From assembly GCA_964600235.1 (NCBI GenBank), contig CAZRIV010000001.1:286727-350726 (forward strand): a DNA stretch of 64,000 nt. The letters run 5' to 3'. The translations under genes and the position numbers were made by a program. Within the stretch, counting starts at the first letter, position 1. The number at the start of each line of letters is the position of its first letter. The notes beneath the pieces are model-generated. The model did not search any database. It saw only the letters and a list, made by a program, of their open reading frames with translations, and was not told the origin of the DNA. Source of the DNA: an uncultured Bacteriovoracaceae bacterium. GTDB taxonomy: Bacteria > Desulfobacterota > Desulfomonilia > UBA1062. Positions 8,128 through 64,000 of the stretch are shown one piece after another.

Positions 8128-10038
8128 CTACAGAGATATCTTTGCGGCAAATCTGTATGTCCTGCCCTGGACGGGATACCAGGAGGTGCCCCAGGATGAT
8201 TTGTAGACATATTCTGGTGACTGGTCATCCAGGAGGTTGTCTATCTTGAAGGATATGGTGGCGTTCCTGCTGACTTCCAGCAGGGCCCCGGCATTGAGCA
8301 GGTAACGGTTGTCCGTTTTTTCCGTATTGGCATCATCCTGGTACGAGCCCTTCCTGAATTGATATGCCAGGGAAAAGGTCGTGTTCCTGCCGGCTATCTC
8401 CGGCAGGTAATCGGCCTGGAGATTGAGCACCTGGTCGGGCCTCTGGCCGAGGTCGTTGCCCTTGTACGGCCCGCTTTCAAAGGTATTGCGGCTCAGGATG
8501 TAATTCGTTGAGAGCTTGCACACGCTGACGGGCGCCACCCAGGCGTTCGCCTCCAGGCCTGAAGACTGCGCCTTATTCACGTTGATGTAGGTAAAGCTGC
8601 CTTCTGATGGGTAATCCGCCTTGATGAGGTCGCGGTAGGCGGTAAAGAAGTAGTTGGCGCTGAAGCCGCAGGTGTTCAGGGAGACGGTCGGTCCCGCATC
8701 CCAGCTGAACGACCGCTCTGGCTCGAGATCAGGGTTGGGCACAAAGATGAAAAAACTCGATGAGGGGGCATAGAGCTTTCCCATGTCGGGAAGAAGATAG
8801 CCCGTGCCTGCATTCGCCTTTATCTGCACATGATCCATGACCTTGTATGCGAGACCTGCATGGTATGACCATTCATCGTCGAAATCCGAGCTGCTGTCAT
8901 ACCTGCCGACAAGCTCCATGAAAACCTTTTCCAGGTCTGCGGATGTCGATAAGGAGGCGCTGCCGTTGCTGCGGGAATGGGTGCCATAATCATCCGAGCG
9001 CATCCGTTCACCGAGGTATTCGGCCATGGGTGTGACGGTGAACATACCGAACTTCCTGGAATATGCGGCAGAGACGTTCCTGCTGTTCATCTTGGTCGTG
9101 TTGTCATTGCCCGGCCCCCATGAGGGTCTTTCATTCCTGGTCTCATTGGTCGATGCCCAGGTGCGCAGGGTGAAGGACTGATCCTCGGCCATGGACTTTC
9201 TGGATTCGAACAGGAACGTGTTCTGCGAACTGTCGATCCGGTCGTCGGGTGTCAGGTATCCGGGTTCGACCCCGGGCGATCCGTTCGACTGGTCGATGAA
9301 GTTGCCCATGAGCGAGCTCTGCCAACCCTGGACATCAAATACCGCCTTGAAAAGGCCTGTGGTGTTCTGTGTCGAGTTGTTCTCCCGTTTCGTCCATGAC
9401 CCGTCATCTCGTCTATATCGATAATCGTTGTCGGCAAATGCATGGGTGATGTTCGCCAGGAGGCCTGCCTGACCTGCCGAGGCGCTCGCATGGCCATGGT
9501 AGAGGCCATAGCCATAGGTTCCCTGTGATGTATAGAGGTCATATTCTTCCACTGGCCCCGGGCTCTGAGTAACGAGATTGACGATCCCTCCCATTGCCGA
9601 TTTCCCGAAGGCCGCACTGTTGCTGCCCTTGATGATCTCAATCCGTTCAATATCCGGGAGCATGAACTGTGACAGGTCCACCATGTCTCCAGTCAGGGGA
9701 TTAAGAGGTATGCCGTCTAAAGTGACGAGGGTCTGCCTGTAGCTGGAACCCCTGAGAGTCACTGGTGAGGTCGTTGCACCGCCGTAGTCGGAGTAATCTA
9801 CCGACGATGCCCTTCTCAGTGCCTCACCGGTATCGACAAGTCCTGCCGAGTCCGGGGAAGGGACGATGATGTCTGAAAAGGATGTCGGGGCCTTTTTCAC
9901 GACCGAGCCATCAGCCTTTTTTTCCACCGTGGGCGTGACAACGATTAAGATATCCGATGCCGCATGAGCTTGAGGGTGCAAAAATGCCCCAAGTACGAGA
10001 GCCGTGAGGAGAAACACAAACGCTTTCAGATGGTCCAT
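8128..10038 (-). CDS. btuB: TonB-dependent outer-membrane receptor, likely cobalamin (BtuB-like)
   Basis: Signal peptide, TonB-box/plug region (DIIV..., TLDGIPLN, IEIIKG), a large beta-barrel, and a cobalamin riboswitch in the 5' UTR. Confidence 0.8.
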   Translation of the reverse strand: MDHLKAFVFLLTALVLGAFLHPQAHAASDILIVVTPTVEKKADGSVVKKAPTSFSDIIVPSPDSAGLVDTGEALRRASSVDYSDYGGATTSPVTLRGSSYRQTLVTLDGIPLNPLTGDMVDLSQFMLPDIERIEIIKGSNSAAFGKSAMGGIVNLVTQSPGPVEEYDLYTSQGTYGYGLYHGHASASAGQAGLLANITHAFADNDYRYRRDDGSWTKRENNSTQNTTGLFKAVFDVQGWQSSLMGNFIDQSNGSPGVEPGYLTPDDRIDSSQNTFLFESRKSMAEDQSFTLRTWASTNETRNERPSWGPGNDNTTKMNSRNVSAAYSRKFGMFTVTPMAEYLGERMRSDDYGTHSRSNGSASLSTSADLEKVFMELVGRYDSSSDFDDEWSYHAGLAYKVMDHVQIKANAGTGYLLPDMGKLYAPSSSFFIFVPNPDLEPERSFSWDAGPTVSLNTCGFSANYFFTAYRDLIKADYPSEGSFTYINVNKAQSSGLEANAWVAPVSVCKLSTNYILSRNTFESGPYKGNDLGQRPDQVLNLQADYLPEIAGRNTTFSLAYQFRKGSYQDDANTEKTDNRYLLNAGALLEVSRNATISFKIDNLLDDQSPEYVYKSSWGTSWYPVQGRTYRFAAKISL

Positions 10039-10094
10039 CTGGACGCCTCCATGGAGTATTCCCTTGGAGTCTCCACCCAGGCACGCGGGTGTAG

Positions 10095-10250
10095 TCCGGA
10101 CTACGGATAGGTCTTCTGGCTCACGGATCGTATTGACAGCCCTTGCCTTCCCGCTTTCGCAGTGGCCTGCACCGGACTGCCCTCCCCGTTCACAGCGGCG
10201 GCCCCGTCCCGGAATCTCACCGGGTTCCCTTGAATCCGCAGCAGGGTAAG
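10095..10250 (-). ncRNA. cobalamin (B12) riboswitch in the 5' UTR of the TonB-dependent receptor
   Basis: Read on the minus strand: AAGGGAACCCGGUGAGAUUCCGGGAC...GCCGCUGUGAACGGGGAGG...AGUCCGGUGCAGGCCACUGCGAAAGCGGGAAGGC...GAGCCAGAAGACCUAUCC. This matches the conserved core and the B12 box of RF00174. A GGAGG RBS lies 7 nt before the ATG. Confidence 0.75.
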
Positions 10251-10393
10251 GCTCTGATAGCAGATTGGTTTTGGGGTGTCAATCATGCCGGCAGCGACCA
10301 TGGAAGAGTTTTTCATCCCATATACCCGCCCTCCGGAGCAGCATCGAATTTTTCCTTGTTGCGCTTAGCGTGAATCTCTGGCATAGAGGGTTT

Positions 10394-10465
10394 ATGAAAA
10401 CAGTATCGGCACGCATATTTTTCGGCTATTATTTCTGGTTTAGGAAGTGGCCGCCTGTGGGCTGA
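10394..10465 (+). CDS. putative aromatic-amino-acid attenuator leader peptide (23 aa)
   Basis: ATG with an AGAGGG RBS encodes MKTVSARIFFGYYFWFRKWPPVG* (8 of 23 residues are Phe, Tyr or Trp). It sits immediately upstream of an intrinsic terminator and the DAHP synthase gene. Confidence 0.5.
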   Translation: MKTVSARIFFGYYFWFRKWPPVG

Positions 10466-10487
10466 GCTGTTCGTACGCGAGCACAAA

Positions 10488-10525
10488 GGCCGTGGGTGGT
10501 CACCTTCCCGCGGCCTTTTTCTTTT
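10488..10525 (+). terminator. intrinsic terminator / attenuator hairpin upstream of aroF
   Basis: GGCCGUGGG-uggucaccuu-CCCGCGGCC (9-bp stem with one G-U pair) followed by UUUUUCUUUU. It lies 22 nt after the leader stop codon and about 50 nt before the aroF start. Confidence 0.6.
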
Positions 10526-10574
10526 GGCCTGATGGAAGTGACGCACACGGCACATAAAAGTAAAGGAGGCTAGT

Positions 10575-11594
10575 GTGATCATTTCCATGAAAAAAAATGC
10601 TACTGCTGAAGAGATCGACCATGTCAAGACCCTCATCGAATCCTTCGGATACCGGGTTCATGAGAGTGTAGGTGCTGAAAGGGTCATCTTCGGCGCCATC
10701 GGCGACGAGAGGGGCAAGGAGAGGCTCACGTGCCTCGAGGCCCAGCCCGGCGTTGAAAAGGTGATCCGCATACTCACCCCGTACAAGCTCGCTTCCCGTG
10801 AGACAAAACCCGAACCCACTGTTGTCGACATTGGGATGGGCGTCAAGGTGGGAAACAGTAAGATAGCCATCTTTGCAGGACCATGCGCTGTGGAGTCCAG
10901 GGAACAGATCATGGAGGTTGCAAAGACCATCAAGGAGAGCGGTGCACATATCCTCAGGGGCGGCGCCTTCAAACCCAGGACCTCTCCCTATGCGTTCCAG
11001 GGGCTGAAGAATGACGGGCTCCTGCTCCTGTCCATGGCAAGGGAAGAGTACGGCATTCCCGTTGTCACCGAGGTGATGGACATCGGCAGCATCGAGGTAA
11101 TCCTCGAGAATGCCGACTGCCTCCAGATCGGGGCGCGCAATATCCAGAACTTCCAGCTCCTCAAGGAGGTCGGCAAGACGGAAAAACCGGTTCTCCTGAA
11201 GCGCGGCATGTCCACCACCATCGAGGAGTTCATCATGTCGGCCGAGTATGTCATGGCCGGAGGCAACAGCCAGGTTATCCTGTGCGAACGCGGTATCCGC
11301 ACATTCGAAACCGCCACGCGCAATACGCTCGACATTTCGGCCGTCCCGGTGCTCAAGGAAAAGACCCATCTCCCCGTCATCGTGGACCCCTCCCACGGTA
11401 CCGGCCATGCCCGCTATGTCGAGGCCATGTCCTATGCCGCCATTGCAGCCGGGGCGGACGGTCTCATGATAGAAGTCCACCCGAAACCCGAGGAGGCCCT
11501 CTCGGACGGACCCCAGTCCCTGAGGCCTGCAGAGTTCAGCAGGGTCATGGAGGGCATCAAGCGCATCGCCCAGGCCGTGGGGAGGGACGTATGA
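10575..11594 (+). CDS. aroF: 3-deoxy-D-arabino-heptulosonate-7-phosphate synthase, class I-beta with N-terminal ferredoxin-like regulatory domain
   Basis: GTG start with an AAAGGAGG RBS. The catalytic core reads GPCAVES...KPRTSPY...QIGARN...VDPSH, preceded by an N-terminal regulatory domain of about 70 aa as in Thermotoga-type DAHPS. 339 aa. Confidence 0.85.
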
Positions 11595-36114: not shown

Positions 36115-37923
36115 TTATTCCTTCTCCTCACGGTACATCCCTTCTATCTCCCTGGAGAAGTTCGCATTTACCACCTTGCGCTTGATCTTGAGCGTAGGGG
36201 TGAGCTCACCGGTTTCGATGCTGAATTCCCTGGAGAGGAGAGTAAACCTGCGGATCTGTTCGACCCTTGCGTATTCCTTCATCAGTGTCTCGAGCTTTTC
36301 GCGGTAGAAGGTCACAATCTCAGGTTTTTTGACCAGGTCTTCGTTCGAGTCGAAAGAAATGCCCTGTTTCTTGGCATAGGTGGTCAGTTCCTTGAAGTTC
36401 GGCACGATCAGAGCGCTGATGAACTTTCTGCCTTCACCGATCACCACGGACTGTTCGATGTACAGGTCGGATACAAGTGTATTCTCGATATTCTGGGGGG
36501 CTATATTTTTTCCGCCCGCGGTGACAATGATGTCCTTCTTCCTGTCCGTGATATATAAACAGCCCCTCTCGTCTATCCTTCCGATATCACCGGTCATGAA
36601 CCAACCGTCTTCATTGAAGACGGCCTTCGTCTCGTCGGGTTTATTGAAGTACCCCCTCATCACCTGCGGTCCTTTGATCAGGATCTCTCCGTCCTGCGCG
36701 ATCATTACTCGGGTATCGGCAAGGGCAGGTCCGACGGAGCCGAATTCAAACACGTCAAACCTGTTCACATTGGTGACCGGGCTTGTTTCCGTGAGGCCAT
36801 ACCCATTGTGCACCGCAACACCTATGCCGTTGAAGAACCGGTCGATCTCCTTGGACAGGGGGCCTCCTCCGCTGATGAAGATCTTGATGCGGTCGAGACC
36901 CAGCGCCGAGCGCATCTTTGAGAACACGACGGCCTCGGCTATATCATACTGTACCCTGATGGCGGGTGGCAGTGGCTTGCGCTGTACCAGGTAATCGACG
37001 GCCCTGTCGGAAACGCCCAGTGCCCATTCAAAAAGCTTCTTTTTCAGGGCAGGTGCCTTATCAGCCTGGGCCTTGATGCCTGAGTAAAGCTTCTCGAAAA
37101 GCCTGGGCACGCTCACCATCAGGGTCGGCCTGGTCTCTTTCATGTTCTCGAGCACGGTGGCAAAACTCTCGGCAAGGTTGATGAGAGCCCCTATGTGTAT
37201 CATGAGATAGAGGGAGACCGTCCTGCCCAGCGAATGGCTCCAGGGGAGCAGGGAAAGCGACTCATCGGCATGGCTTATGAGCGGGTGAGAGGCGTATGCC
37301 TGCAGGACGTTCGCCACAAAGTTGCCGTGGGTGAGCATGACCCCCTTGGGCATTCCGGTCGTGCCGGATGTATAGATGAGGGTGGCAAGACCCTCCGGAT
37401 CGATTGAATTCAACCGCTCCTCGAATACGTATTTATCCTTGAACGCCTCCCCCCGGCGCATCAGTTCATCGAGGGTCAGGATATTGTCTTCAGAAGTGTC
37501 GATTGTGTCGAAGGTTATGATATGCTTCAGGTGCGAGATCCTGTCTTTCATGGAAAGGATCCTGTCCAGATGCTCCTTGTCCGATACGAAAAGCACCTTC
37601 GTACCGGAATCGTTGATGATATAGGCGGCCTCCGCAGCGGAGTTCGTTGCATAGATAGGTGCGGTTGCAGCACCGATGGACAAGGATGCGAGGTCAGCCA
37701 CCATCCACTGCCAGCAATTCTCGGAAAATATCCCCACCATATCCTGTGGATTAATACCCAGCGAGATCAATCCAAGTCCCACCCTGGTGACCATTGAGCG
37801 CATCTCGTTCCAGCTGATGGGGGTGTACCTCCCCTCTTTCTTGTATCTTACAAAGGTCTCATACTGGTAACGTTCCGCCCTGTTGTGGAAAATGCCAGCC
37901 ATGTTTTTTTCAGAGTATCCCAT
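36115..37923 (-). CDS. long-chain fatty acid-CoA ligase (AMP-dependent synthetase/ligase)
   Basis: AMP-binding motifs IYTSGTTGMPKGV and GYGLTETS plus the long-chain acyl-CoA synthetase linker. Start taken at the ATG at 37923 with a GGGGGA RBS; the ORF-track start at 37938 is TTG. Confidence 0.8.
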   Translation of the reverse strand: MGYSEKNMAGIFHNRAERYQYETFVRYKKEGRYTPISWNEMRSMVTRVGLGLISLGINPQDMVGIFSENCWQWMVADLASLSIGAATAPIYATNSAAEAAYIINDSGTKVLFVSDKEHLDRILSMKDRISHLKHIITFDTIDTSEDNILTLDELMRRGEAFKDKYVFEERLNSIDPEGLATLIYTSGTTGMPKGVMLTHGNFVANVLQAYASHPLISHADESLSLLPWSHSLGRTVSLYLMIHIGALINLAESFATVLENMKETRPTLMVSVPRLFEKLYSGIKAQADKAPALKKKLFEWALGVSDRAVDYLVQRKPLPPAIRVQYDIAEAVVFSKMRSALGLDRIKIFISGGGPLSKEIDRFFNGIGVAVHNGYGLTETSPVTNVNRFDVFEFGSVGPALADTRVMIAQDGEILIKGPQVMRGYFNKPDETKAVFNEDGWFMTGDIGRIDERGCLYITDRKKDIIVTAGGKNIAPQNIENTLVSDLYIEQSVVIGEGRKFISALIVPNFKELTTYAKKQGISFDSNEDLVKKPEIVTFYREKLETLMKEYARVEQIRRFTLLSREFSIETGELTPTLKIKRKVVNANFSREIEGMYREEKE

Positions 37924-38374
37924 ATGTCCCCCTCTCAAGGCTTCCTAGGATGTTCCTGAAGTCTCGTGATGTAAGCACCATTGGTCAATCCGGGTCACAC
38001 CCGGCTTATTGCGGAAATACATGCGTATATAGCATAAGGTATCTTAACATGTCCGATCATACCAGGCAGGCATGTAATCGACAGATCATCCGGGCGATGA
38101 GAGCTTGTCCGGCGATTTTCCTGCATGCTGTCTGTCCTGGGCTTTTAAAAGTGTATATCCGATTTTTGAAAGATCAACAAATGTGATTAAACCGTAAGAA
38201 AGGGTCTATGAACCTGTCCATATGCTTGGTTAAGCTCTGCATCCTTTTATGATCGTTCAATTTATTGAACCAGTTCTTGTTGAGACGACCCTGCTTCAAC
38301 CCATGATCGCCTCAATACGCCCATTTCCGGGAGAAATGTTGCCAGGGGTTTTGAAATTCATTATAGTGTCACCG

Positions 38375-42508: not shown

Positions 42509-42760
42509 ATGTCTGAAATAATTACCGTTATCACTCAGTTCATCAGAGAAAATTTCATCGCAGGCAGGAGTGATGTCATCATCGATCCTGACCAGTCACT
42601 CATCGAAAGCGGCATCATGGATTCCACCGGTGTCCTGGAGCTCGTGGAATTCCTGGAATCAACTTATGAGATCAGGGTAGAAGATGAGGAGCTCGTCCCG
42701 GAAAACCTGGAGACCATCAGCAACATCCTGAAATTCCTTCAGACAAAAGGTGTTTCGTAG
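42509..42760 (+). CDS. acyl carrier protein / peptidyl carrier protein
   Basis: 83 aa acidic four-helix pattern with the phosphopantetheine attachment site GIMDSTGVLELVEFLE. Confidence 0.75.
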   Translation: MSEIITVITQFIRENFIAGRSDVIIDPDQSLIESGIMDSTGVLELVEFLESTYEIRVEDEELVPENLETISNILKFLQTKGVS

Positions 42761-44295
42761 TGGCGCACCTGGTCCACGATTTCCTGGAGTTATCCTGCCT
42801 CAGATACCCTGAAAAGACGGCAATTCTGCATGGCGCACAATCCTATACCTTTTCCCAGATAAACAGTCTGTCCAACAAGCTTGCTCACCTCCTGCTCGCT
42901 CACGGTCTCAAGAAGGGTGACAGGGTGCTGGTTATAATGGAAAATTCCTTTGAGAACGTGGCCAGCTACTACGGCATCCTCAAGGCAGGCGGGGTAAGCG
43001 TTGAGATCCACGAGCGCTCCACCCCTTCCGAGGCCTCCTATTATATCCGGAATTCCGGCGCCAGGATCTGCATCCTCTCAGGACTGACTGCCAAGAGGCT
43101 GGACGGGCTGGATATCCCGCTTGTCGTCGCAGGAGAACCCCATGGGGATGACCCATCAAGGAGGCATATCACCTGGGGCGATCTCGATTCCATGCCTGAC
43201 AGCCAGCCATCGGTCAGCCTAGTCGAAGACGATCTTGCGGCCATCGTCTACACCTCGGGCAGCACGGGAAACCCCAAAGGCGTAACGCTGACACACAAGA
43301 ATCTCTGCTCGAACACGGCCTCCATCGTGTCCTACCTGGGGCTGGTCGAAACCGACCGCATCATGGCCGTACTGCCCTTCTATTATGTCTATGGAAAAAC
43401 CCTTCTCAATACCCACTTCATGGTGGGAGGTTCGGTAGTCATCAACAACCGGTTCGCCTTTCCCAACGCAGTGATCAAGGAGATGATTGAAAAGGAGGTT
43501 ACGGGTTTCGCCGGTGTACCTTCCACCTTTGCCATCCTCATGAACCGCTCCATCTTTTCCAAGACCGCAATCCCGACACTGCGCTATGTGACCCAGGCAG
43601 GCGGGGCCATGGCCCCCGCGCTGACCAGAAGGCTCATGGAGCATCTCGGGAACACCGATCTCTTCATCATGTACGGCGCCACCGAGGCCTCTGCCAGGCT
43701 CACCTATCTCCCGCCGGCCAGGCTCAGAAAAGACAAGCTCGGGTCCATCGGCATTCCCATCAGGGATGTCCGGATAACCATCAGGGACGATGCGGGCAAT
43801 GAGGTGAACAATTATGAAGTGGGCAACATCTGCGCCGCCGGGCCGAACATCATGCAGGGCTACTGGCAGGACCCCGAAGAAACGTCCAAATCGCTGAAGC
43901 CGTGGGGTCTGGTCACCGGAGACCTGGGGCACAAGGACGATGAGGGATACATCTTCCTTACCGGCAGGAAAAAGGAGATGCTGAAGATTGGCGGCGAACG
44001 TGTATCCCCCAGGGAGATCGAAGACGCCATCATCGCCTCGGGGCTCGTGCATGAGACATCGGTCATCGGCAGGCCCGATGAACTGCTCTCCGAGGTGCCT
44101 GCGGCATATATCGTCCCCCTGGACGAGAAGACTTTCAACCTGGATGACCTTAAGGCCTTTCTGGCCCAGCGCCTGGCAGGCCACAAGCACCCGGCATTCT
44201 GGTACCTGCGCAAGGCCATGCCGAAAAAACCCTCAGGCAAAATAGACAAGGAGATCTTAAAGAATGAATTACTGTGCGAAATGCGTACTGCCTGA
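42760..44295 (+). CDS. AMP-dependent synthetase/ligase (acyl- or aminoacyl-carrier-protein ligase candidate)
   Basis: Adenylation motifs IVYTSGSTGNPKGV, YGATE and GDLGHKDDEGY; GTG start overlapping the ACP stop codon (TAGTG). Confidence 0.8.
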   Translation: MAHLVHDFLELSCLRYPEKTAILHGAQSYTFSQINSLSNKLAHLLLAHGLKKGDRVLVIMENSFENVASYYGILKAGGVSVEIHERSTPSEASYYIRNSGARICILSGLTAKRLDGLDIPLVVAGEPHGDDPSRRHITWGDLDSMPDSQPSVSLVEDDLAAIVYTSGSTGNPKGVTLTHKNLCSNTASIVSYLGLVETDRIMAVLPFYYVYGKTLLNTHFMVGGSVVINNRFAFPNAVIKEMIEKEVTGFAGVPSTFAILMNRSIFSKTAIPTLRYVTQAGGAMAPALTRRLMEHLGNTDLFIMYGATEASARLTYLPPARLRKDKLGSIGIPIRDVRITIRDDAGNEVNNYEVGNICAAGPNIMQGYWQDPEETSKSLKPWGLVTGDLGHKDDEGYIFLTGRKKEMLKIGGERVSPREIEDAIIASGLVHETSVIGRPDELLSEVPAAYIVPLDEKTFNLDDLKAFLAQRLAGHKHPAFWYLRKAMPKKPSGKIDKEILKNELLCEMRTA

Positions 44296-56785: not shown

Positions 56786-59700
56786 TCACGACAGTGAGTA
56801 GAGTATCTCCCGTATCTCCTTCGGCATGTCCTTGTCCCTGAGCGGGATCTCCACAAGGCCTTCGGGCCTTAACCTTCCCATTCTCTTCGTGACAAAGGCA
56901 ATTATCCTGTCCAGGTCGATAATGCTATCACGGCTCAGGTACAACCTCAACATCTCTTCGTTGATATCGAGCTTTCTGAACCTCTTCTTCTTCATGACGT
57001 CACGGAGCTCGGATATGAGGAGCAGGGATTTGACCGGGGCCGGCAAAGGGCCATAGAGGTCCTTGAGCTCTTCGGTCATGGCGGCGAGTTCGTCGCTCGA
57101 TGCCGAGAAGAGCCTCTTGTACAGTCCGAGCCTCAAGTGCTGGTCAGGACAATAGTCCTCCGGGATATAGGCATCCAGGGAAATCCTTATCTCCGGGTCG
57201 ATCTCGGGCAATGCCTGCCTGCCCTGGAGATGATCCACCGCCTCCTTGAGCATCTCCTGGTAAAGCTCGTACCCGATGGCCGTGACATGACCCCACTGGG
57301 CCTGGCCGAGTATGTCGCCCACGCCGCGTATCTCCATATCGCGCATGGCCATGTGGAATCCTGCGCCGAGCGATTCATACTCCTTTATGGCCGCAAGCCT
57401 CTTGTGTGCGTCTTTCGTGATCTGTCCGACCTCGGGAAGGAGAAGAAGGGCATGGCCCTTGATCTTTGACCTGCCCACCCTTCCCCTGAGCTGGTAGAGG
57501 TCCGCAAGGCCGAACTTGTCCGCCCTGTTTATGATGATGGTATTGGCGTTTGTGATGTCCAGCCCCGAGCTGATGATGGCCGAGCTTACGAGCACCGTTA
57601 TGCTGCGATCCATGAAACTGCTCATGACCTTATCCAGCCTGGCCCTGGGCATCTGGCCGTGAGCCACCCCGATCCGTGCACCGGCGCACAATCCCTGGAT
57701 GTGCCGTGCCATGGCATCGATGGTGGCGACCGTATTATGGACAAAGAATGCCTGGCCTCCCCGTTCGAGCTCCCTGGTGATGGCCGAGGCAATGGCCTCG
57801 TCGTCGAAACGGGTGACCACGGTGTCTATGGATTTCCGCTCCGCCGGGGGCGTCTCGATCACCGAGAGTTCCCTCAGCCCGGAAATGGCCATGTTCAGGG
57901 TGCGGGGTATGGGCGTTGCCGTGAGCGTGAGCACATCCACATTCGCCCGGAAGGATTTGATCCTCTCCTTGTGCTGCACGCCGAACCTGTGCTCTTCATC
58001 CACGATCAGGAGCCCCAGGTCCTTGAATTTCGTCTTTTCCGAGAGCAGTGCATGCGTGCCTATGATGATGTCCACCCGGCCCGCTTCCAGGGCGGCGAGT
58101 ACCTCTTTTCCCCCGGCGGAGGTGCTCATGCCTGAAAGGGCCTCAACAAGTACCGGCCATCTCGACATCCTTTCCCTGAAGGTCATGAGGTGCTGGCGTG
58201 CGAGCAGGGTCGTGGGCACAAGCAGCGCCACCTGCTTGCCCGACATGACCGCCGCAAAGGCGGCACGTAACGCGATTTCGGTCTTGCCGTACCCCACGTC
58301 CCCGCAGACGAGCCTGTCCATCGGACGCAGCGAGGCCATGTCCGCATAGGTCTCTTCCACCGCCTTGAGCTGGTCATCGGTCTCGTCATAGGGGAATGAA
58401 TCCTCGAACTCCTCTATGGACGGGCTCGTGACATCGTATGAGATGCCCTGCGCAGCCTGGCGTCTTGCATAGAGCTGGAGGAGTTCGCCGGCCAGCTTCG
58501 CCACCGAGTGGCCGGCCTTGGCCTTGGCGCTCGCCCATCTGGTGCCACCGAGCTTGTCGACGGTGTAATGGTCCGCGTCGCCGATATAGCGCGCCAGGAG
58601 CGAAAGCCGGTATACCGGGACATAGAGCCTGTCTCCCCCGAGGTATTCCAGCAGAACGTAATCGCTCAGGTTGCCGTCAATCTCGAGCCTCACCACCCCC
58701 TTGAAGATGCCTATGCCGTTGTCCCGGTGCACGACCGCGTCGTCCAGATTGAGCTGGGTAAAGGGATCGAATATGGGCGGTCCTGACGGCCCCCTTCTCC
58801 TCTTCCTCCTGGCGCCGAGCATCTCCTCGGCGGAGATGAGCGCCACCGCATGCCCGTTCAGGACGAAACTCGACGAGAGCGACCCTTCCAGCATGCGCAC
58901 CCGGCCGCCGAAGCCCCCGTGATGCATGAGAAACTCGGCATTGCCGGGCTCGGGTTTGTACCCGCGGCTCTCAAACGCGTATTCAATGCGTTCGGTCAGC
59001 ATGTCTGCACTCGAGAAGATGAAAATATCGACCTTGTCATGGATGAGGCTGGTGATCTTCTCAAAGACGACGTCCACCGACCCGCCCGAAAAGGCTTCGA
59101 AGCTGAGGCGCTGATGCGTCTCGGGTTCGAAGGACTCGGCAAGGGAGGCGGATATCCTCGTCTTGAAACCGCCCATGCGCGTGACGAGCTCGTCCTTTCC
59201 CATGATGATGTCATCGGGCGTGACATGCACCCTCTGCCTGGAAAGGGCACGTTCATGGCCGTGGGCATACGACGCAAAGACTTCATCCCACATGGCGGCA
59301 GCCTCCACGTCATCAGGGCCGAGAAGGGCCGCCTGAGAGGGGAGGAAGTCGAAGATCGTGGAGGCCTTCTCATAGAAGAGCACCAGGTAGGACTCTATCC
59401 CGGGGGTGTGGATGCCCTGCTCCATGTCTTCGATGAGATACCTGGCGTTCGCATCGGTCATCTTGCGCATGGCAGGCCGGGCATTCTTCATGTGAGGATA
59501 GTCCAGGAGCACCTCGCCTGCAGGGAGTATCTCGGCCGAGGTGATGGCACTGCGGGTCCTCTGGGTCTGCACGTCGAATTCCTTGATGGCGGTGATCTCG
59601 TCGCCGAACAGGTCTATCCTCACGGGCGACTTCATGCCCGGCGAAAAGACGTCCATGACCGAGCCCCTGATGCTGAACTGCCCTACATCATCCACCAGGG

Positions 59701-60160
59701 CCTCCCGGATGTAGCCCATGCGCACGAGCCTGAGGGAGAGCTCCTCCCTGTCCAGTTCGTCACCCGTCTTGATGAAGGCGATGCTTCCCAAAAGGTCGGA
59801 CCTGCCCATGGTGAACCCGAGGATGGCCTGCAGGGGGGCGACAACCACGGCTGCTGGTCCCGTGGCCAGGGCATGCAGGGTGTCGATCCTGCGCGCCATG
59901 ATCTCTTTCGAGGGGCTGTCGTCCTGGTAGGGCCTCACGTCATAAGGCGGAAACAACCTTACCTGGTCCGGCTTTACGAAACACAGCAGGTCTTCTTGGG
60001 CCCGGTACATTTCTTCGGCGCTTCTCACGACCCACAGTACTGTCCTTTTCCCCTGACCAAGGACGGATGAGGCGATGAGCGCCTGGAGCGCACAGGGGTA
60101 AAATCCGGCATGAGATATTGATGAGAGCCTCTCGAGAAGACTATCGGCCATGGTCCTCAT
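56786..60160 (-). CDS. mfd: transcription-repair coupling factor
   Basis: 1124 aa; UvrB-homology N-terminus, RNAP-interaction domain, superfamily 2 helicase motifs (DVGYGKTE, DEEHRFG, TLTATPIPRT) and a TRCF C-terminal domain. Confidence 0.95.
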   Translation of the reverse strand: MRTMADSLLERLSSISHAGFYPCALQALIASSVLGQGKRTVLWVVRSAEEMYRAQEDLLCFVKPDQVRLFPPYDVRPYQDDSPSKEIMARRIDTLHALATGPAAVVVAPLQAILGFTMGRSDLLGSIAFIKTGDELDREELSLRLVRMGYIREALVDDVGQFSIRGSVMDVFSPGMKSPVRIDLFGDEITAIKEFDVQTQRTRSAITSAEILPAGEVLLDYPHMKNARPAMRKMTDANARYLIEDMEQGIHTPGIESYLVLFYEKASTIFDFLPSQAALLGPDDVEAAAMWDEVFASYAHGHERALSRQRVHVTPDDIIMGKDELVTRMGGFKTRISASLAESFEPETHQRLSFEAFSGGSVDVVFEKITSLIHDKVDIFIFSSADMLTERIEYAFESRGYKPEPGNAEFLMHHGGFGGRVRMLEGSLSSSFVLNGHAVALISAEEMLGARRKRRRGPSGPPIFDPFTQLNLDDAVVHRDNGIGIFKGVVRLEIDGNLSDYVLLEYLGGDRLYVPVYRLSLLARYIGDADHYTVDKLGGTRWASAKAKAGHSVAKLAGELLQLYARRQAAQGISYDVTSPSIEEFEDSFPYDETDDQLKAVEETYADMASLRPMDRLVCGDVGYGKTEIALRAAFAAVMSGKQVALLVPTTLLARQHLMTFRERMSRWPVLVEALSGMSTSAGGKEVLAALEAGRVDIIIGTHALLSEKTKFKDLGLLIVDEEHRFGVQHKERIKSFRANVDVLTLTATPIPRTLNMAISGLRELSVIETPPAERKSIDTVVTRFDDEAIASAITRELERGGQAFFVHNTVATIDAMARHIQGLCAGARIGVAHGQMPRARLDKVMSSFMDRSITVLVSSAIISSGLDITNANTIIINRADKFGLADLYQLRGRVGRSKIKGHALLLLPEVGQITKDAHKRLAAIKEYESLGAGFHMAMRDMEIRGVGDILGQAQWGHVTAIGYELYQEMLKEAVDHLQGRQALPEIDPEIRISLDAYIPEDYCPDQHLRLGLYKRLFSASSDELAAMTEELKDLYGPLPAPVKSLLLISELRDVMKKKRFRKLDINEEMLRLYLSRDSIIDLDRIIAFVTKRMGRLRPEGLVEIPLRDKDMPKEIREILYSLS

Positions 60161-61573: not shown

Positions 61574-63517
61574 TCAGAAGATCCTCTTATTATCGGGGAA
61601 AAGCTGGATCTGGTCAAGGCCGAGCAGGTGCTCGTCCTCGTGATTCCCCACATGATGGTATGAGCGCTTCTTCCGGGGTGATGCAAAGGGCTTGAGATCA
61701 TAATCAAGCCTGACCACGTTATATTCCACGCAGGCGTTCATGTGCAGGTTCAGCTTTTCAAAGGCATGCAGCATCTTGGTGTTCTTTTCCCAGATATAGG
61801 CGCGGAACATCTCGAAACCACGTTCCCTGGCCACCTGCATCATGGTGTTGAGCAGGTACGACCCCATGCCCAGGTTCTGCCATGCAGGATGGACCATGAC
61901 TGCGAACTCGCATGTCCTCTTTTCGAATTCCTCTTCGTCGAGAATGATGTGGGCTATGGCGATGATGTCCTTCGATCCGGCACCCGGGCCCTCCACCACC
62001 AGGGCCAGGGAGTTGTCATAGTCGCAGTTCACCATCTGCTGGGCCTGGCGATGATGCAGCGAAGTCACGTGGATGTGGAACCGGTGAAACCGCTCATCGC
62101 TGCTCAGGGAATAGAACAGGTTCTGGACACCCCTTTCGTCCGTGATCTTGACAGGCCTTATCATGAGCTCCTGCCCGCCGAATAGGTGCCAATGCTCGTA
62201 CTTGTCCGGATACAGGGAGTCTTCGGGGGGGAGGACCTGGTCGGGGTAGATATACTTCATCCTCTTCGCCTCTTCCAGCAGCCACCTGCGGAACTTGGGG
62301 TGGGCGATGGTTATGAGCTCGAGCACCCGTTCCCGTATGGACTTGCCGAACAGGTTCACGCACCCGAATTCGGTTACCACGTAGCTCACGTCGGTCTGGG
62401 TGGTGAAGATACCCATCCTGGCCTCGGTGAACCGTGGGACTATCCTTGAAATGCTCCCGTCGCGGGATGTGGACCTCAGGGCGATAATGGCCTTGCCGCC
62501 CTTCGACATCTGGGCGATCCTGTTGAAGTGGGGCTGTCCCAGTGCGCCGAAATGCGCCCCCTTCTCGCCGAGCGCAACGCACGACTGCCCGGTGATGTCT
62601 ATCTCAACAGCGCCGTTGATGGCGACGAACGCCTTCCTCTCAAGGATGACCTGGGGATCGCTCACATGGGCAAGGGGTTCCATCCGGACCTGGCTGTTCC
62701 GGCTTACAAAATCGAACAGGTCTTTCGATCCGATGCACAGTGAAGCGGTTATGGTGTTGCCTTCGGGGATGACCCCTTCCTTGACCAGGTCCATGACGGT
62801 ATCCGTGACGATCTCTGAATGTATGGACAAATCCTTTTTGCCCTTCATGGCCTTCAGCGCGGCGTCGGGTATTCTGCCGAAACCGACCTGGATGGTAGAG
62901 CCGTCTTTCACCAGGCCCGCAACGTTCTCCCCGATCTGCCTGGTCTCGAAATCGAGCTCTTCGGTCGGCGAGGAGATCAGCGGCTCCTCGTATTCCACGA
63001 CATGATCGACCTCTGATATGTGCACGAGGCTCTCGCCGCAGGTGAAAGGCATGTGTGAGTTTACCTGGGCCACCACGATATCCGCGTGCTCTATCATGGC
63101 CCTCACGATGTCCACGGTCACGCCCAGACTCATGTACCCATTCTCATCTGGCGGGCTCAACTGGATGATGGCCGTATTTATCCTTATCGACCCTTCTCGA
63201 ATCAGCCTGTCGAGCATATCGGATGACAGGGGGATATGATCGGTCTTGCCGGAAGAAAACGGGCCGGACAGCCCCGGGGATACAAAGAATGAATGGATCC
63301 TGAACCGTGTGCCCGCCTCGCCCCCGAAATCCGAATAGGTCCTTAAGGGAACGGTCGTATAGACCTGAACGTCGCTGAGGTCCATGTTGCCGAGGATAAG
63401 CTTGCGAACCAGGTGTTGAGGCTCCCCGCAGCCTGATTCCACGAACATGCTGGATCCCGGGTTGATGATACCCTGTATGTCTTCTGCCGCAACCTTCCTC
63501 TTCAGATATTCTTCCAT
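61574..63517 (-). CDS. fusion protein: acetyl-CoA hydrolase/transferase family domain (N-terminal, about 430 aa) plus GNAT acetyltransferase domain (C-terminal, about 200 aa)
   Basis: N-terminal region with the CoA-transferase family III-like pattern (GSGCGEPQHL..., GFGRIPDAAL...). The C-terminus carries GNAT motif A, WQNLGMGSYLLNTMMQVARERGF. 647 aa. Confidence 0.7.
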   Translation of the reverse strand: MEEYLKRKVAAEDIQGIINPGSSMFVESGCGEPQHLVRKLILGNMDLSDVQVYTTVPLRTYSDFGGEAGTRFRIHSFFVSPGLSGPFSSGKTDHIPLSSDMLDRLIREGSIRINTAIIQLSPPDENGYMSLGVTVDIVRAMIEHADIVVAQVNSHMPFTCGESLVHISEVDHVVEYEEPLISSPTEELDFETRQIGENVAGLVKDGSTIQVGFGRIPDAALKAMKGKKDLSIHSEIVTDTVMDLVKEGVIPEGNTITASLCIGSKDLFDFVSRNSQVRMEPLAHVSDPQVILERKAFVAINGAVEIDITGQSCVALGEKGAHFGALGQPHFNRIAQMSKGGKAIIALRSTSRDGSISRIVPRFTEARMGIFTTQTDVSYVVTEFGCVNLFGKSIRERVLELITIAHPKFRRWLLEEAKRMKYIYPDQVLPPEDSLYPDKYEHWHLFGGQELMIRPVKITDERGVQNLFYSLSSDERFHRFHIHVTSLHHRQAQQMVNCDYDNSLALVVEGPGAGSKDIIAIAHIILDEEEFEKRTCEFAVMVHPAWQNLGMGSYLLNTMMQVARERGFEMFRAYIWEKNTKMLHAFEKLNLHMNACVEYNVVRLDYDLKPFASPRKKRSYHHVGNHEDEHLLGLDQIQLFPDNKRIF

Positions 63518-63803
63518 GGCTCTGAAGACCCCCCTGACCCAATAATAAGAGCACTCAATAGTTTCTAGAAAATATCAGCTACCTTAATTAAATACTATGT
63601 ATCGCTACGTATCGGCATGTTCTCACGGCATTATAACAGGCTCTTTCATTGTCTTTTATGCTGTTGTATTTGCAAATGATATTAGATACGCCTGCACCGT
63701 AATAAAATGGTTGAGCTGCATGCTTTTACTTGTTTCACCATTTCCCGGTTTTAAGGTAGTATCCGCACACCATGCACAAGGGAAATGACAGGGGACCCTG
63801 CAC

Positions 63804-64000
63804 ATGAAGATCGTCTTTGCGAGCGACCTCCACGGCCGGCCGGAACTGTATCGACGGTTGTCGGACTTTGCGCTCCGTGTATCGGCCGAGCTTGTCCTTT
63901 TAGGCGGTGACCTGCTCCCCACGCGCATCGCCAACCCCAGGGTGCTCCTGAGTGCGAACGAAGACGACTTCCAGGTGTGCCTGCGCGCACAGATCGAATT
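63804..64000 (+). CDS. metallophosphoesterase (calcineurin-like), 5' part; gene continues beyond window end
   Basis: MKIVFASDLHGRPELY...VLLGGDLLP is the classic metallophosphoesterase motif I/II start. The reading frame is open to the window edge. Confidence 0.5.
   Translation, partial: MKIVFASDLHGRPELYRRLSDFALRVSAELVLLGGDLLPTRIANPRVLLSANEDDFQVCLRAQIE

Follow-up and report, generated by a model that had tools for sequence, protein, structure and literature searches.

Among the metabolic switches of prokaryotes that work by protein modification, the reversible lysine acetylation of acyl-coenzyme A (acyl-CoA) synthetases is the best understood. The GNAT acetyltransferases of bacteria have been sorted into Types I to V by their regulatory domain (ACD-like, cAMP, ACT, NADP+ or none), a scheme in which a CoA-transferase type is absent (2025 PatZ structural paper). 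The ACD-like domain of the Pat enzymes, which resembles ADP-forming acyl-CoA synthetases (ACD), lacks the critical His (PMC3195501) and controls the GNAT domain allosterically (PMC12184503). The protein described here has another arrangement. It is encoded in a stretch of 64,000 nucleotides from an uncultured Bacteriovoracaceae bacterium (assembly GCA_964600235.1, contig CAZRIV010000001.1, positions 286,727 to 350,726), called hereafter the window, and it joins a CoA-transferase to a Pat-type GNAT domain. With a modest leaning, this fusion is read here as a lysine acyltransferase of proteins that resembles Pat and has, as its putative sensor or regulator, a domain derived from a class I CoA-transferase. 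The gene (the query) and its main parts are the following:

61574..63517, minus strand: CoA-transferase::GNAT fusion, a complete open reading frame of 647 amino acids plus stop, uninterrupted from ATG to stop
62984..63466, minus strand: N-terminal CoA-transferase domain, residues 18-178, Pfam AcetylCoA_hydro, which holds the clade-specific residues E27, D63, H94 and N114
62267..62731, minus strand: C-terminal CoA-transferase domain, residues 263-417, Pfam AcetylCoA_hyd_C, supported by Pfam and fold matches
61694..62212, minus strand: Pat-type GNAT domain with its N-terminal extension, residues 436-608, aligned to PatZ 710-880
61577..61684, minus strand: C-terminal tail, residues 612-647 (36 amino acids, charged, His-rich), predicted to be disordered (predicted local distance difference test, pLDDT, ~30)

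The first-pass annotation, made from the sequence alone, had proposed such a CoA-transferase::GNAT fusion. The Pfam scan agrees with it, since AcetylCoA_hydro (E-value 6e-19), AcetylCoA_hyd_C (3e-47) and Acetyltransf_1 (residues 498-589, 1.3e-8) are all found over their curated cut-offs in the single 647-residue frame. When the PDB is searched by sequence, the top matches of residues ~1-420 are 4-hydroxybutyrate (4HB) CoA-transferases (9vag at 7e-84, 3eh7 at 1e-79 and 3gk7 at 4e-67), and the last ~175 residues match the Pat group: PatZ (9it0/9isq), S. lividans PAT (4nxy/4u5y), Sulfolobus Pat (3f8k) and the M. tuberculosis entry 4ava. An AlphaFold2 model, built with 54 homologues in the alignment, reaches a pLDDT of 81.9 and a predicted template modelling (TM) score of 0.77; its weak spots include residues 63-67 (pLDDT below 50), residues 311-330 (~64) and the tail 612-647. 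Foldseek superposes the N-terminal part of this model on the 4HB CoA-transferases 3gk7, 2oas and RipA with TM scores of 0.88-0.92. The C-terminal part, for which a GNAT fold had been anticipated, matches the GNAT domain of S. lividans PAT with TM scores of 0.86-0.90, and these matches include an entry solved with the Acs C-terminal domain. Residues ~1-420 have the class I CoA-transferase fold of the 4-hydroxybutyrate/butyryl-CoA:acetate type, fused in frame to the GNAT domain. The window positions given below for the key codons were verified.

That this fusion could result from a frameshift, a mis-assembly or a chimera of two adjacent genes read together has a negligible probability. The frame is continuous, with no sign of two domains lying in separate frames, and the same protein, identical, is encoded on an independent Logan contig. 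Full-length matches are present in 80/80 genome loci, the 120 listed homologues are of like length, and a single confident model spans both domains.

The architecture had at first been treated as a one-off, a view that does not survive comparison with other genomes. A protein database search returned 4753 proteins at E<=1e-10, of which 120 were listed; all 120 are ~600-660 residues long or fragments of such proteins, nearly all with the same Pfam combination. In a genome scan covering a single genome of each species, relatives are encoded in at least 594 stretches, of which the best 80 loci were inspected. All of these match the query through the GNAT core, and identity to the query ranges from 38 to 83% over 88-100% of its length among the full-length listed homologues and the 80 loci. 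The bacterial loci among these 80 belong to Desulfobacterota, Myxococcota, Planctomycetota, Verrucomicrobiota, Chloroflexota, Fibrobacterota, Nitrospirota and other phyla, and 14 of the 80 are archaeal, with Methanothrix/Methanosaeta, Thermoplasmata, Bathyarchaeia, Thorarchaeota and Hodarchaeota among them. NCBI already gives one member the generic name 'bifunctional acetyl-CoA hydrolase/transferase family protein/GNAT family N-acetyltransferase', and none of the curated NCBIfam models reaches its cut-off on the fusion. The family is apparently large, widespread, generically annotated and uncharacterised.

The GNAT half is specifically of the Pat type, and no generic GNAT. Query residues 436-608 and PatZ 710-880 can be aligned over their whole length (7.6e-13), the segment before the GNAT core included, and a match to MtPat 4ava is also found at 4e-5. 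The main functional positions can be transferred from the PatZ alignment as follows:

62081..62083, minus strand: Arg479 codon, equivalent to PatZ R754 of the gating motif (our own mapping from the PatZ alignment)
61907..61909, minus strand: Glu537 codon, equivalent to the catalytic Glu809 of PatZ
61862..61879, minus strand: GNAT motif A/P-loop Q547-N-L-G-M-G552, equivalent to PatZ K819-G824

The WQNLGMG motif A quoted at the outset is thus present, with Q547-G552 at 61862-61879, and its glycines G550-G552 are aligned with G822-G824 of PatZ. In PatZ, E809 is the key catalytic residue, since activity is significantly reduced in the E809A mutant, and R754 of the gating motif is needed for activity, the R754A mutant being inactive (2025 PatZ structural paper). 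Conservation of the equivalent positions in the fusions is nearly complete: R479 and N579 are found in 186/186 sequences and E537 in 182/186, the remaining four having Asp. The GNAT region alone was also searched against 1.8 billion cluster representatives. Three classes are seen among the best 150 matches considered: proteins of ~600-650 residues with a C-terminal GNAT, which correspond to the CoA-transferase::GNAT fusion; proteins of ~790-960 residues in which the GNAT lies at about 640-890, as in Type I Pat; and short stand-alone proteins. The NCBIfam equivalog model of the mycobacterial acetyltransferase Pat (NF058543) gives 46.9 bits, below its cut-off of 460, and on the GNAT part only.

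The CoA-transferase half of the query has kept the nucleophilic Glu and the Asn, and residues of its pocket and signature motif have changed in the lineage of the query. This query clade was defined by at least 48% identity to the query (70 sequences) and compared with the other 116 fusions and with the solved enzymes. Its source names are Desulfomonilia, other Desulfobacterota/'Deltaproteobacteria' and one Spirochaete metagenome-assembled genome (MAG). Mean pairwise identity among its 70 sequences is ~62% for the CoA-transferase half and ~53% for the GNAT half. Inspected clade members of ~616 residues stop shortly past the GNAT domain, unlike the 647-residue query. The positions of interest in the CoA-transferase half are:

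62813..62815, minus strand: Glu235 codon, equivalent by alignment to the nucleophile Glu238 of C. aminobutyricum AbfT, conserved in 70/70 members of the query clade
62615..62617, minus strand: Asn301 codon, in an AIN motif, the probable equivalent of the internal-oxyanion Asn347 of AarC, conserved in 70/70 clade members
62525..62548, minus strand: altered signature motif G324-A-L-G-Q-P-H-F331, where G-x-G-G-Q-x-D-F is found elsewhere
62396..62398, minus strand: Gln374 codon, with Arg in 116/116 other fusions and in both solved enzymes, and Gln in 69/70 clade members

The equivalence of Asn301 with AarC Asn347 is judged from conservation and spacing. The solved CoA-transferases and the remaining fusions read GxGGQxDF, whereas the query reads GALGQPHF, a departure that the first-pass annotation had not picked up. 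Position 326 is Leu in 70/70 clade sequences versus Gly in 115/116 other fusions, and position 330 is variable in the clade (H, V, L, T and others) versus Asp in 115/116 elsewhere. The external oxyanion-hole Gly388 of AarC would be retained as G327, the second Gly of GGQ, a position mapped by the Gly388-Phe392 spacing and not by direct alignment. Further substitutions are fixed in the query clade, each at 90% or more: G27E, Y63D, Y94H, D114N, Y268F, V312S, L363F and A387V. T234S is flagged likewise, yet AbfT itself carries Ser there. Some of these changes lie near the putative acyl-binding pocket, which contains His31 and Phe113 (RipA study). Position 27 neighbours the residue aligned with AbfT His31, and position 114 lies three residues past the one aligned with AbfT Phe114, which is taken, though not from a direct RipA alignment, as the likely counterpart of the RipA pocket residue Phe113.

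Identity of the CoA-transferase half to the two solved 4HB CoA-transferases is 39% and 35% in the query clade versus 50% and 46% in the other fusions. On the TIGR03948 equivalog model of butyryl-CoA:acetate CoA-transferase, the query scores 179.2 bits, below the cut-off of 674.8, as does a 'clade B' fusion with 283 bits. The degenerate motif first suggested that the CoA-transferase domain of the query might be a dead pseudo-enzyme. This reading was then softened, because the Glu, the Asn and the presumed oxyanion Gly are retained, the replacements are fixed, and truly dead versions occur in other lineages. The pattern rather indicates a re-specialised pocket, neither decayed nor that of a canonical enzyme, because Glu235 and Asn301 are kept in 70/70 sequences and the replacement residues are themselves conserved at 90% or more.

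The dead versions are found outside the query clade, where the nucleophilic Glu is replaced in 13/116 fusions (6 Asp, 4 Gln, 2 Ser and 1 His) and the Asn of the AIN motif is absent in 12/116. Five Desulfobacterales-type MAGs (L046, L052, L063, L064 and L073) carry HTQ or HTH, SISSA and GIGDQ together, so that the nucleophile (Gln or His), the Asn and the oxyanion Gly have all been lost at once. Two Methanothrix-type loci (L069 and L074, one titled Methanothrix and one Methanobacteriota) read IHTS, where Glu has become Ser. In all seven of these genomes, five bacterial and two archaeal, the GNAT catalytic residues are intact. A dead CoA-transferase beside an intact GNAT implies that selection always keeps the GNAT and does not always keep the CoA-transferase chemistry. 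The N-terminal domain behaves thus like a regulatory module, as it does in Pat.

These lineages also bear on a different reading, in which the fusion would be a bifunctional channelling enzyme: the CoA-transferase would make an acyl-CoA from acetyl-CoA and a carboxylate, and the GNAT would use it to N-acylate a protein or a small amine, with acyl groups other than acetyl. The first-pass annotation had speculated in this direction, with succinyl- or butyryl-CoA as examples of an unusual donor. The fusion of two domains handling acyl-CoA is indeed a classic mark of coupled reactions. Most of the family seems to have two intact active sites, and outside the query clade the CoA-transferase halves are ~50% identical to a solved 4HB CoA-transferase and have the Glu, the Asn and GxGGQxDF; even in the query clade, Glu235 and Asn301 are retained in 70/70 sequences. 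However, the occurrence of at least two independent lineages with an inactivated CoA-transferase and an intact GNAT argues against obligate donor channelling, since coupling cannot then be obligatory family-wide, and the query clade is altered at the signature motif and at the otherwise invariant Arg374. Channelling is considered unlikely, although it keeps some weight.

The neighbouring genes provide another line of evidence, drawn from the 80 species-representative loci; all counts are lower bounds, because many contigs are truncated. An ACD-like gene is found near the fusion in 34/80 loci, being immediately upstream on the same strand in 23, immediately downstream in 5, divergent upstream in 4 and farther off in 2. 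A Hist_deacetyl gene is present in 11/80 loci, directly after the fusion gene in several of them, and a genuine Acs (53-76% identical to that of L007) is encoded at most ~6 kb from the fusion in 10/80. At least one of the three is found in 38/80 loci. In two Planctomycetota loci, L007 and L010, the gene of a 699-residue ADP-forming acyl-CoA synthetase ends 14 bp upstream of the fusion, and an Acs gene is convergent, with a major facilitator superfamily (MFS) transporter gene close by; in L007, the called Hist_deacetyl gene begins 3 bp downstream of the fusion. The neighbours of the main branch point to a putative acetate-switch protein acetyltransferase. The initial description of the protein as Pat-like with a different CoA-binding module was fair, and it is largely borne out by the PatZ alignment, by the fold and by the ACD, Hist_deacetyl and Acs neighbours of the family.

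Several local observations complete this view of the loci. A recurrent string, with ACD, CoA-transferase::GNAT, Hist_deacetyl and Acs within a few kb, is seen in L007 (5888-11023), L015, L032, L033 and others, and an MFS transporter gene joins it in L007, L010 and L033. In L010, a tblastn search reveals a full-length Hist_deacetyl coding region at 9883-11013 on the plus strand, equivalent in position to that of L007 and 59% identical to it; the source record has two small minus-strand open reading frames there, probably a gene-calling error. One context is unlike all others: in L005 (8001-11293, the Spirochaete HGW-1 MAG), the fusion gene and the beginning of a Condensation-domain gene overlap, next to a phosphopantetheinyl transferase gene and a nonribosomal peptide synthetase (NRPS) of 4607 residues.

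The ACD is the strongest neighbour, and it raises the question of a purely metabolic role, in which the CoA-transferase would partner the neighbouring ACD in acetate or short-chain acid turnover, the GNAT being an accessory acting on a small molecule or regulating the protein itself or the ACD. The ACD looks indeed catalytically competent. Searched against the PDB, the neighbouring ACD matches an ADP-forming 4-hydroxybutyrate-CoA ligase best (9e-150) and PatZ less well (9e-94), and 34/35 of these proteins retain the SHTG histidine, which we take to be the catalytic phosphohistidine; they look like real enzymes. One Spirochaete locus amid NRPS genes would also fit a metabolic role. On the other side, the GNAT catalytic residues are better conserved than the CoA-transferase nucleophile, the GNAT is nearest to the protein-acetylating Pat enzymes, and in several loci the gene right after the fusion encodes a protein deacetylase. 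A metabolic role of this kind appears quite improbable. Both this role and channelling look most viable in the branches with both active sites intact. Separately, the ACD and the CoA-transferase half of the fusion both match best with 4-hydroxybutyrate enzymes, a shared label that may or may not be meaningful.

If the fusion is a Pat-like protein lysine acyltransferase, the following mechanism can be proposed. By homology, the GNAT binds acyl-CoA through its Q-x-x-G-x-G loop, with Glu537 in register with PatZ Glu809. Its usual targets would be the acyl-CoA-forming enzymes of acetate and short-chain-acid metabolism, as the gene neighbourhoods of the family suggest, foremost the AMP-forming acyl-CoA synthetases, which would be acetylated at the lysine of their PX4GK motif, a mark that a Zn-dependent deacetylase would reverse. 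The CoA-transferase module, which looks catalytically competent in most of the family and dead in some lineages, would read the acyl-CoA/carboxylate pool by binding, possibly via a covalent Glu-CoA thioester, and would gate or scaffold the GNAT like the PatZ regulatory domain does. In the query clade, the pocket appears re-specialised (G27E, Y63D, Y94H, D114N, G326L, D330 freed and R374Q), with Glu235 and Asn301 retained. Because the pocket and the signature motif of its clade have changed, it is probable that the query no longer belongs to the acetate-switch operon and that the ligand which it senses or handles is another one.

A bolder formulation can be put forward only tentatively, the chances being somewhat against it. 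The fusion family would be a sixth, unclassified type of prokaryotic lysine acetyltransferase, with a class I CoA-transferase domain, able to form a covalent glutamyl-CoA thioester, sensing the acyl-CoA/carboxylate balance and gating a Pat-type GNAT; together with the ACD and the deacetylase, it would run the acetate switch of many anaerobic bacteria and of archaea, the Methanothrix and Asgard lineages among them. In the Desulfomonilia clade, the sensor pocket would have been retuned to another ligand and the protein rewired to other targets.

Several points weigh against interpreting the query as a protein acyltransferase of this kind. The substrates of a GNAT are not readable from its sequence. 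The presence of Glu235 and Asn301 in 70/70 clade members is as compatible with a working enzyme as with a sensor. No ACD, Hist_deacetyl or Acs gene is found within 8-10 kb of the query fusion or of four other distinct clade loci, and the operon evidence is borrowed from relatives only ~40% identical to the query. Lastly, the literature searches turned up no paper on a CoA-transferase::GNAT fusion or on any member of the family.

The surroundings of the query gene differ from those of the main branch. The loci of its clade carry a Metallophos gene in divergent orientation, together with unrelated ones, tilS and mfd among them. Inferring a function from the neighbourhood of the query itself was attempted and abandoned, since it yielded only this conserved divergent Metallophos gene, which has no NCBIfam match. 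The gene encodes a calcineurin-like protein of 318-320 residues and is divergent from the fusion in four distinct query-clade loci of five. The features concerned are:

63804-64000 of the window, plus strand: Metallophos gene, divergent from the fusion gene
L001 2567-3529, L002 6769-7725, L003 6434-7390 and L006 6365-7327: the corresponding Metallophos genes
63518..63803, no strand assigned: AT-rich spacer of 286 bp between the fusion and the divergent Metallophos gene

The Metallophos proteins of the clade loci are only 51-52% identical and the downstream genes differ; in L003 and L006, a gene encoding a 151-residue FMN_red/flavodoxin protein is inserted between the fusion and the Metallophos gene. 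The 286-bp spacer presumably holds both promoters. A G-rich stretch in it ends 9 nt upstream of the fusion ATG. A sigma-70 scan of the spacer gave no convincing site, and the sigma-70 and terminator scans around the fusion gene did no better than shuffled controls.

Elsewhere in the window, two AMP-forming acyl-CoA ligases are encoded. The first, of 511 residues (42760-44295, plus strand), has a C-terminal PKKPSGK at residues 488-494, which matches PX4GK, presumably the lysine motif acetylated by Pat-type enzymes; this ligase is a candidate substrate of the fusion protein. The second, FadD11-like and of 607 residues (36115-37938, minus strand), is devoid of PX4GK. The gene truncated at the far end of the window had been described as the start, at 1-716, of an ADP-forming acyl-CoA synthetase. 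Its CoA-binding identity is upheld, and its start codon is placed at 712, not 716. The segment 2-712 (minus strand) encodes the N-terminal 237 residues of an ADP-forming acyl-CoA-synthetase-like protein, with CoA_binding, CoA_binding_2 and Succ_CoA_lig matches. This gene continues beyond the edge of the window, lies ~61 kb from the fusion and is the only ACD-like gene in the window. The fragment is 35% identical to the ACD adjoining the fusion in L007; a homologue search with it returned only partial proteins of at most 412 residues, and it may be a free ACD or a canonical Pat. As for mfd, it forms one open reading frame of 1124 residues in the window (56786-60160) and two (352 and 769 residues) at L002 11489-14822, the split being probably a frameshift or an assembly error of that contig.

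What is apparently new here is the recognition of this architecture as a widespread, apparently unstudied variant of Pat-like acetylation, together with the position of the query copy in a divergent sub-clade. To a set of acetyltransferases classed by their regulatory domain, the family would add a regulatory domain of other enzymatic origin. It is common where acetate or short-chain acyl-CoA flux sets the energy yield, as in sulfate reducers, syntrophs, Planctomycetota, Methanothrix and Asgard archaea. With sensor domains that are intact, remodelled or dead beside a catalytic domain that stays constant, the family offers a natural experiment on the conversion of an enzyme into a regulatory domain, a route thought to have been taken by the ACD-like domain of Pat. 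In terms of annotation, the 'bifunctional hydrolase/transferase/GNAT' label probably conceals a regulator.

The fusion can finally be set against the known systems, first its two separate relatives. With the 4HB/butyryl-CoA:acetate CoA-transferases (AbfT 3gk7, P. gingivalis 3eh7, S. oneidensis 2oas, Y. pestis RipA and 9vag), the query shares the two-domain fold, ~33-39% identity, the nucleophilic Glu (AbfT E238, RipA E249, AarC E294), the Asn and the EIDxTGQ block. It differs from them by its additional C-terminal GNAT, by GALGQPHF, by Gln374 and by several pocket-adjacent substitutions. In the acsA/acuABC acetylation switch of B. subtilis, AcuA is a small stand-alone GNAT and AcuC a class I deacetylase of the histone deacetylase (HDAC) type. 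The canonical branch of the fusion family resembles this system in L007, L015, L032, L033, L044 and L070, where GNAT and Hist_deacetyl genes lie beside acs. In contrast, AcuA has no CoA-transferase domain, and the query locus is without an acs or deacetylase gene.

The closest likeness is to the Type I/II Pat enzymes (S. enterica Pat, E. coli PatZ/YfiQ and S. lividans PatA). The GNAT is homologous, with the same extension, catalytic Glu, gating Arg and P-loop; in both cases a large N-terminal domain comes from an acyl-CoA-handling enzyme of acetate metabolism, and the wider fusion family is genomically associated with Acs. The regulatory domain of the fusion has, however, the class I CoA-transferase fold, where that of Pat has the ADP-forming acyl-CoA-synthetase fold: no CoA_binding, Succ_CoA_lig or ATP-grasp match was found in residues 1-420 by Pfam, by PDB sequence search or by fold search. 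Moreover, the catalytic nucleophile is usually present in the fusion, while the critical His is gone from Pat, and a separate, apparently active ACD is encoded beside the fusion in many genomes. The Type III GNATs (M. tuberculosis PatA with a cyclic nucleotide (cNMP) domain, M. aurantiaca PatB with an ACT domain and M. xanthus ActC with an NADP-binding domain) also combine a metabolite-binding N-terminal domain with a lysine-acetylating GNAT. The ligand-binding domain of the fusion is distinct from theirs and much larger, and it has an enzyme fold able to form a covalent CoA adduct.

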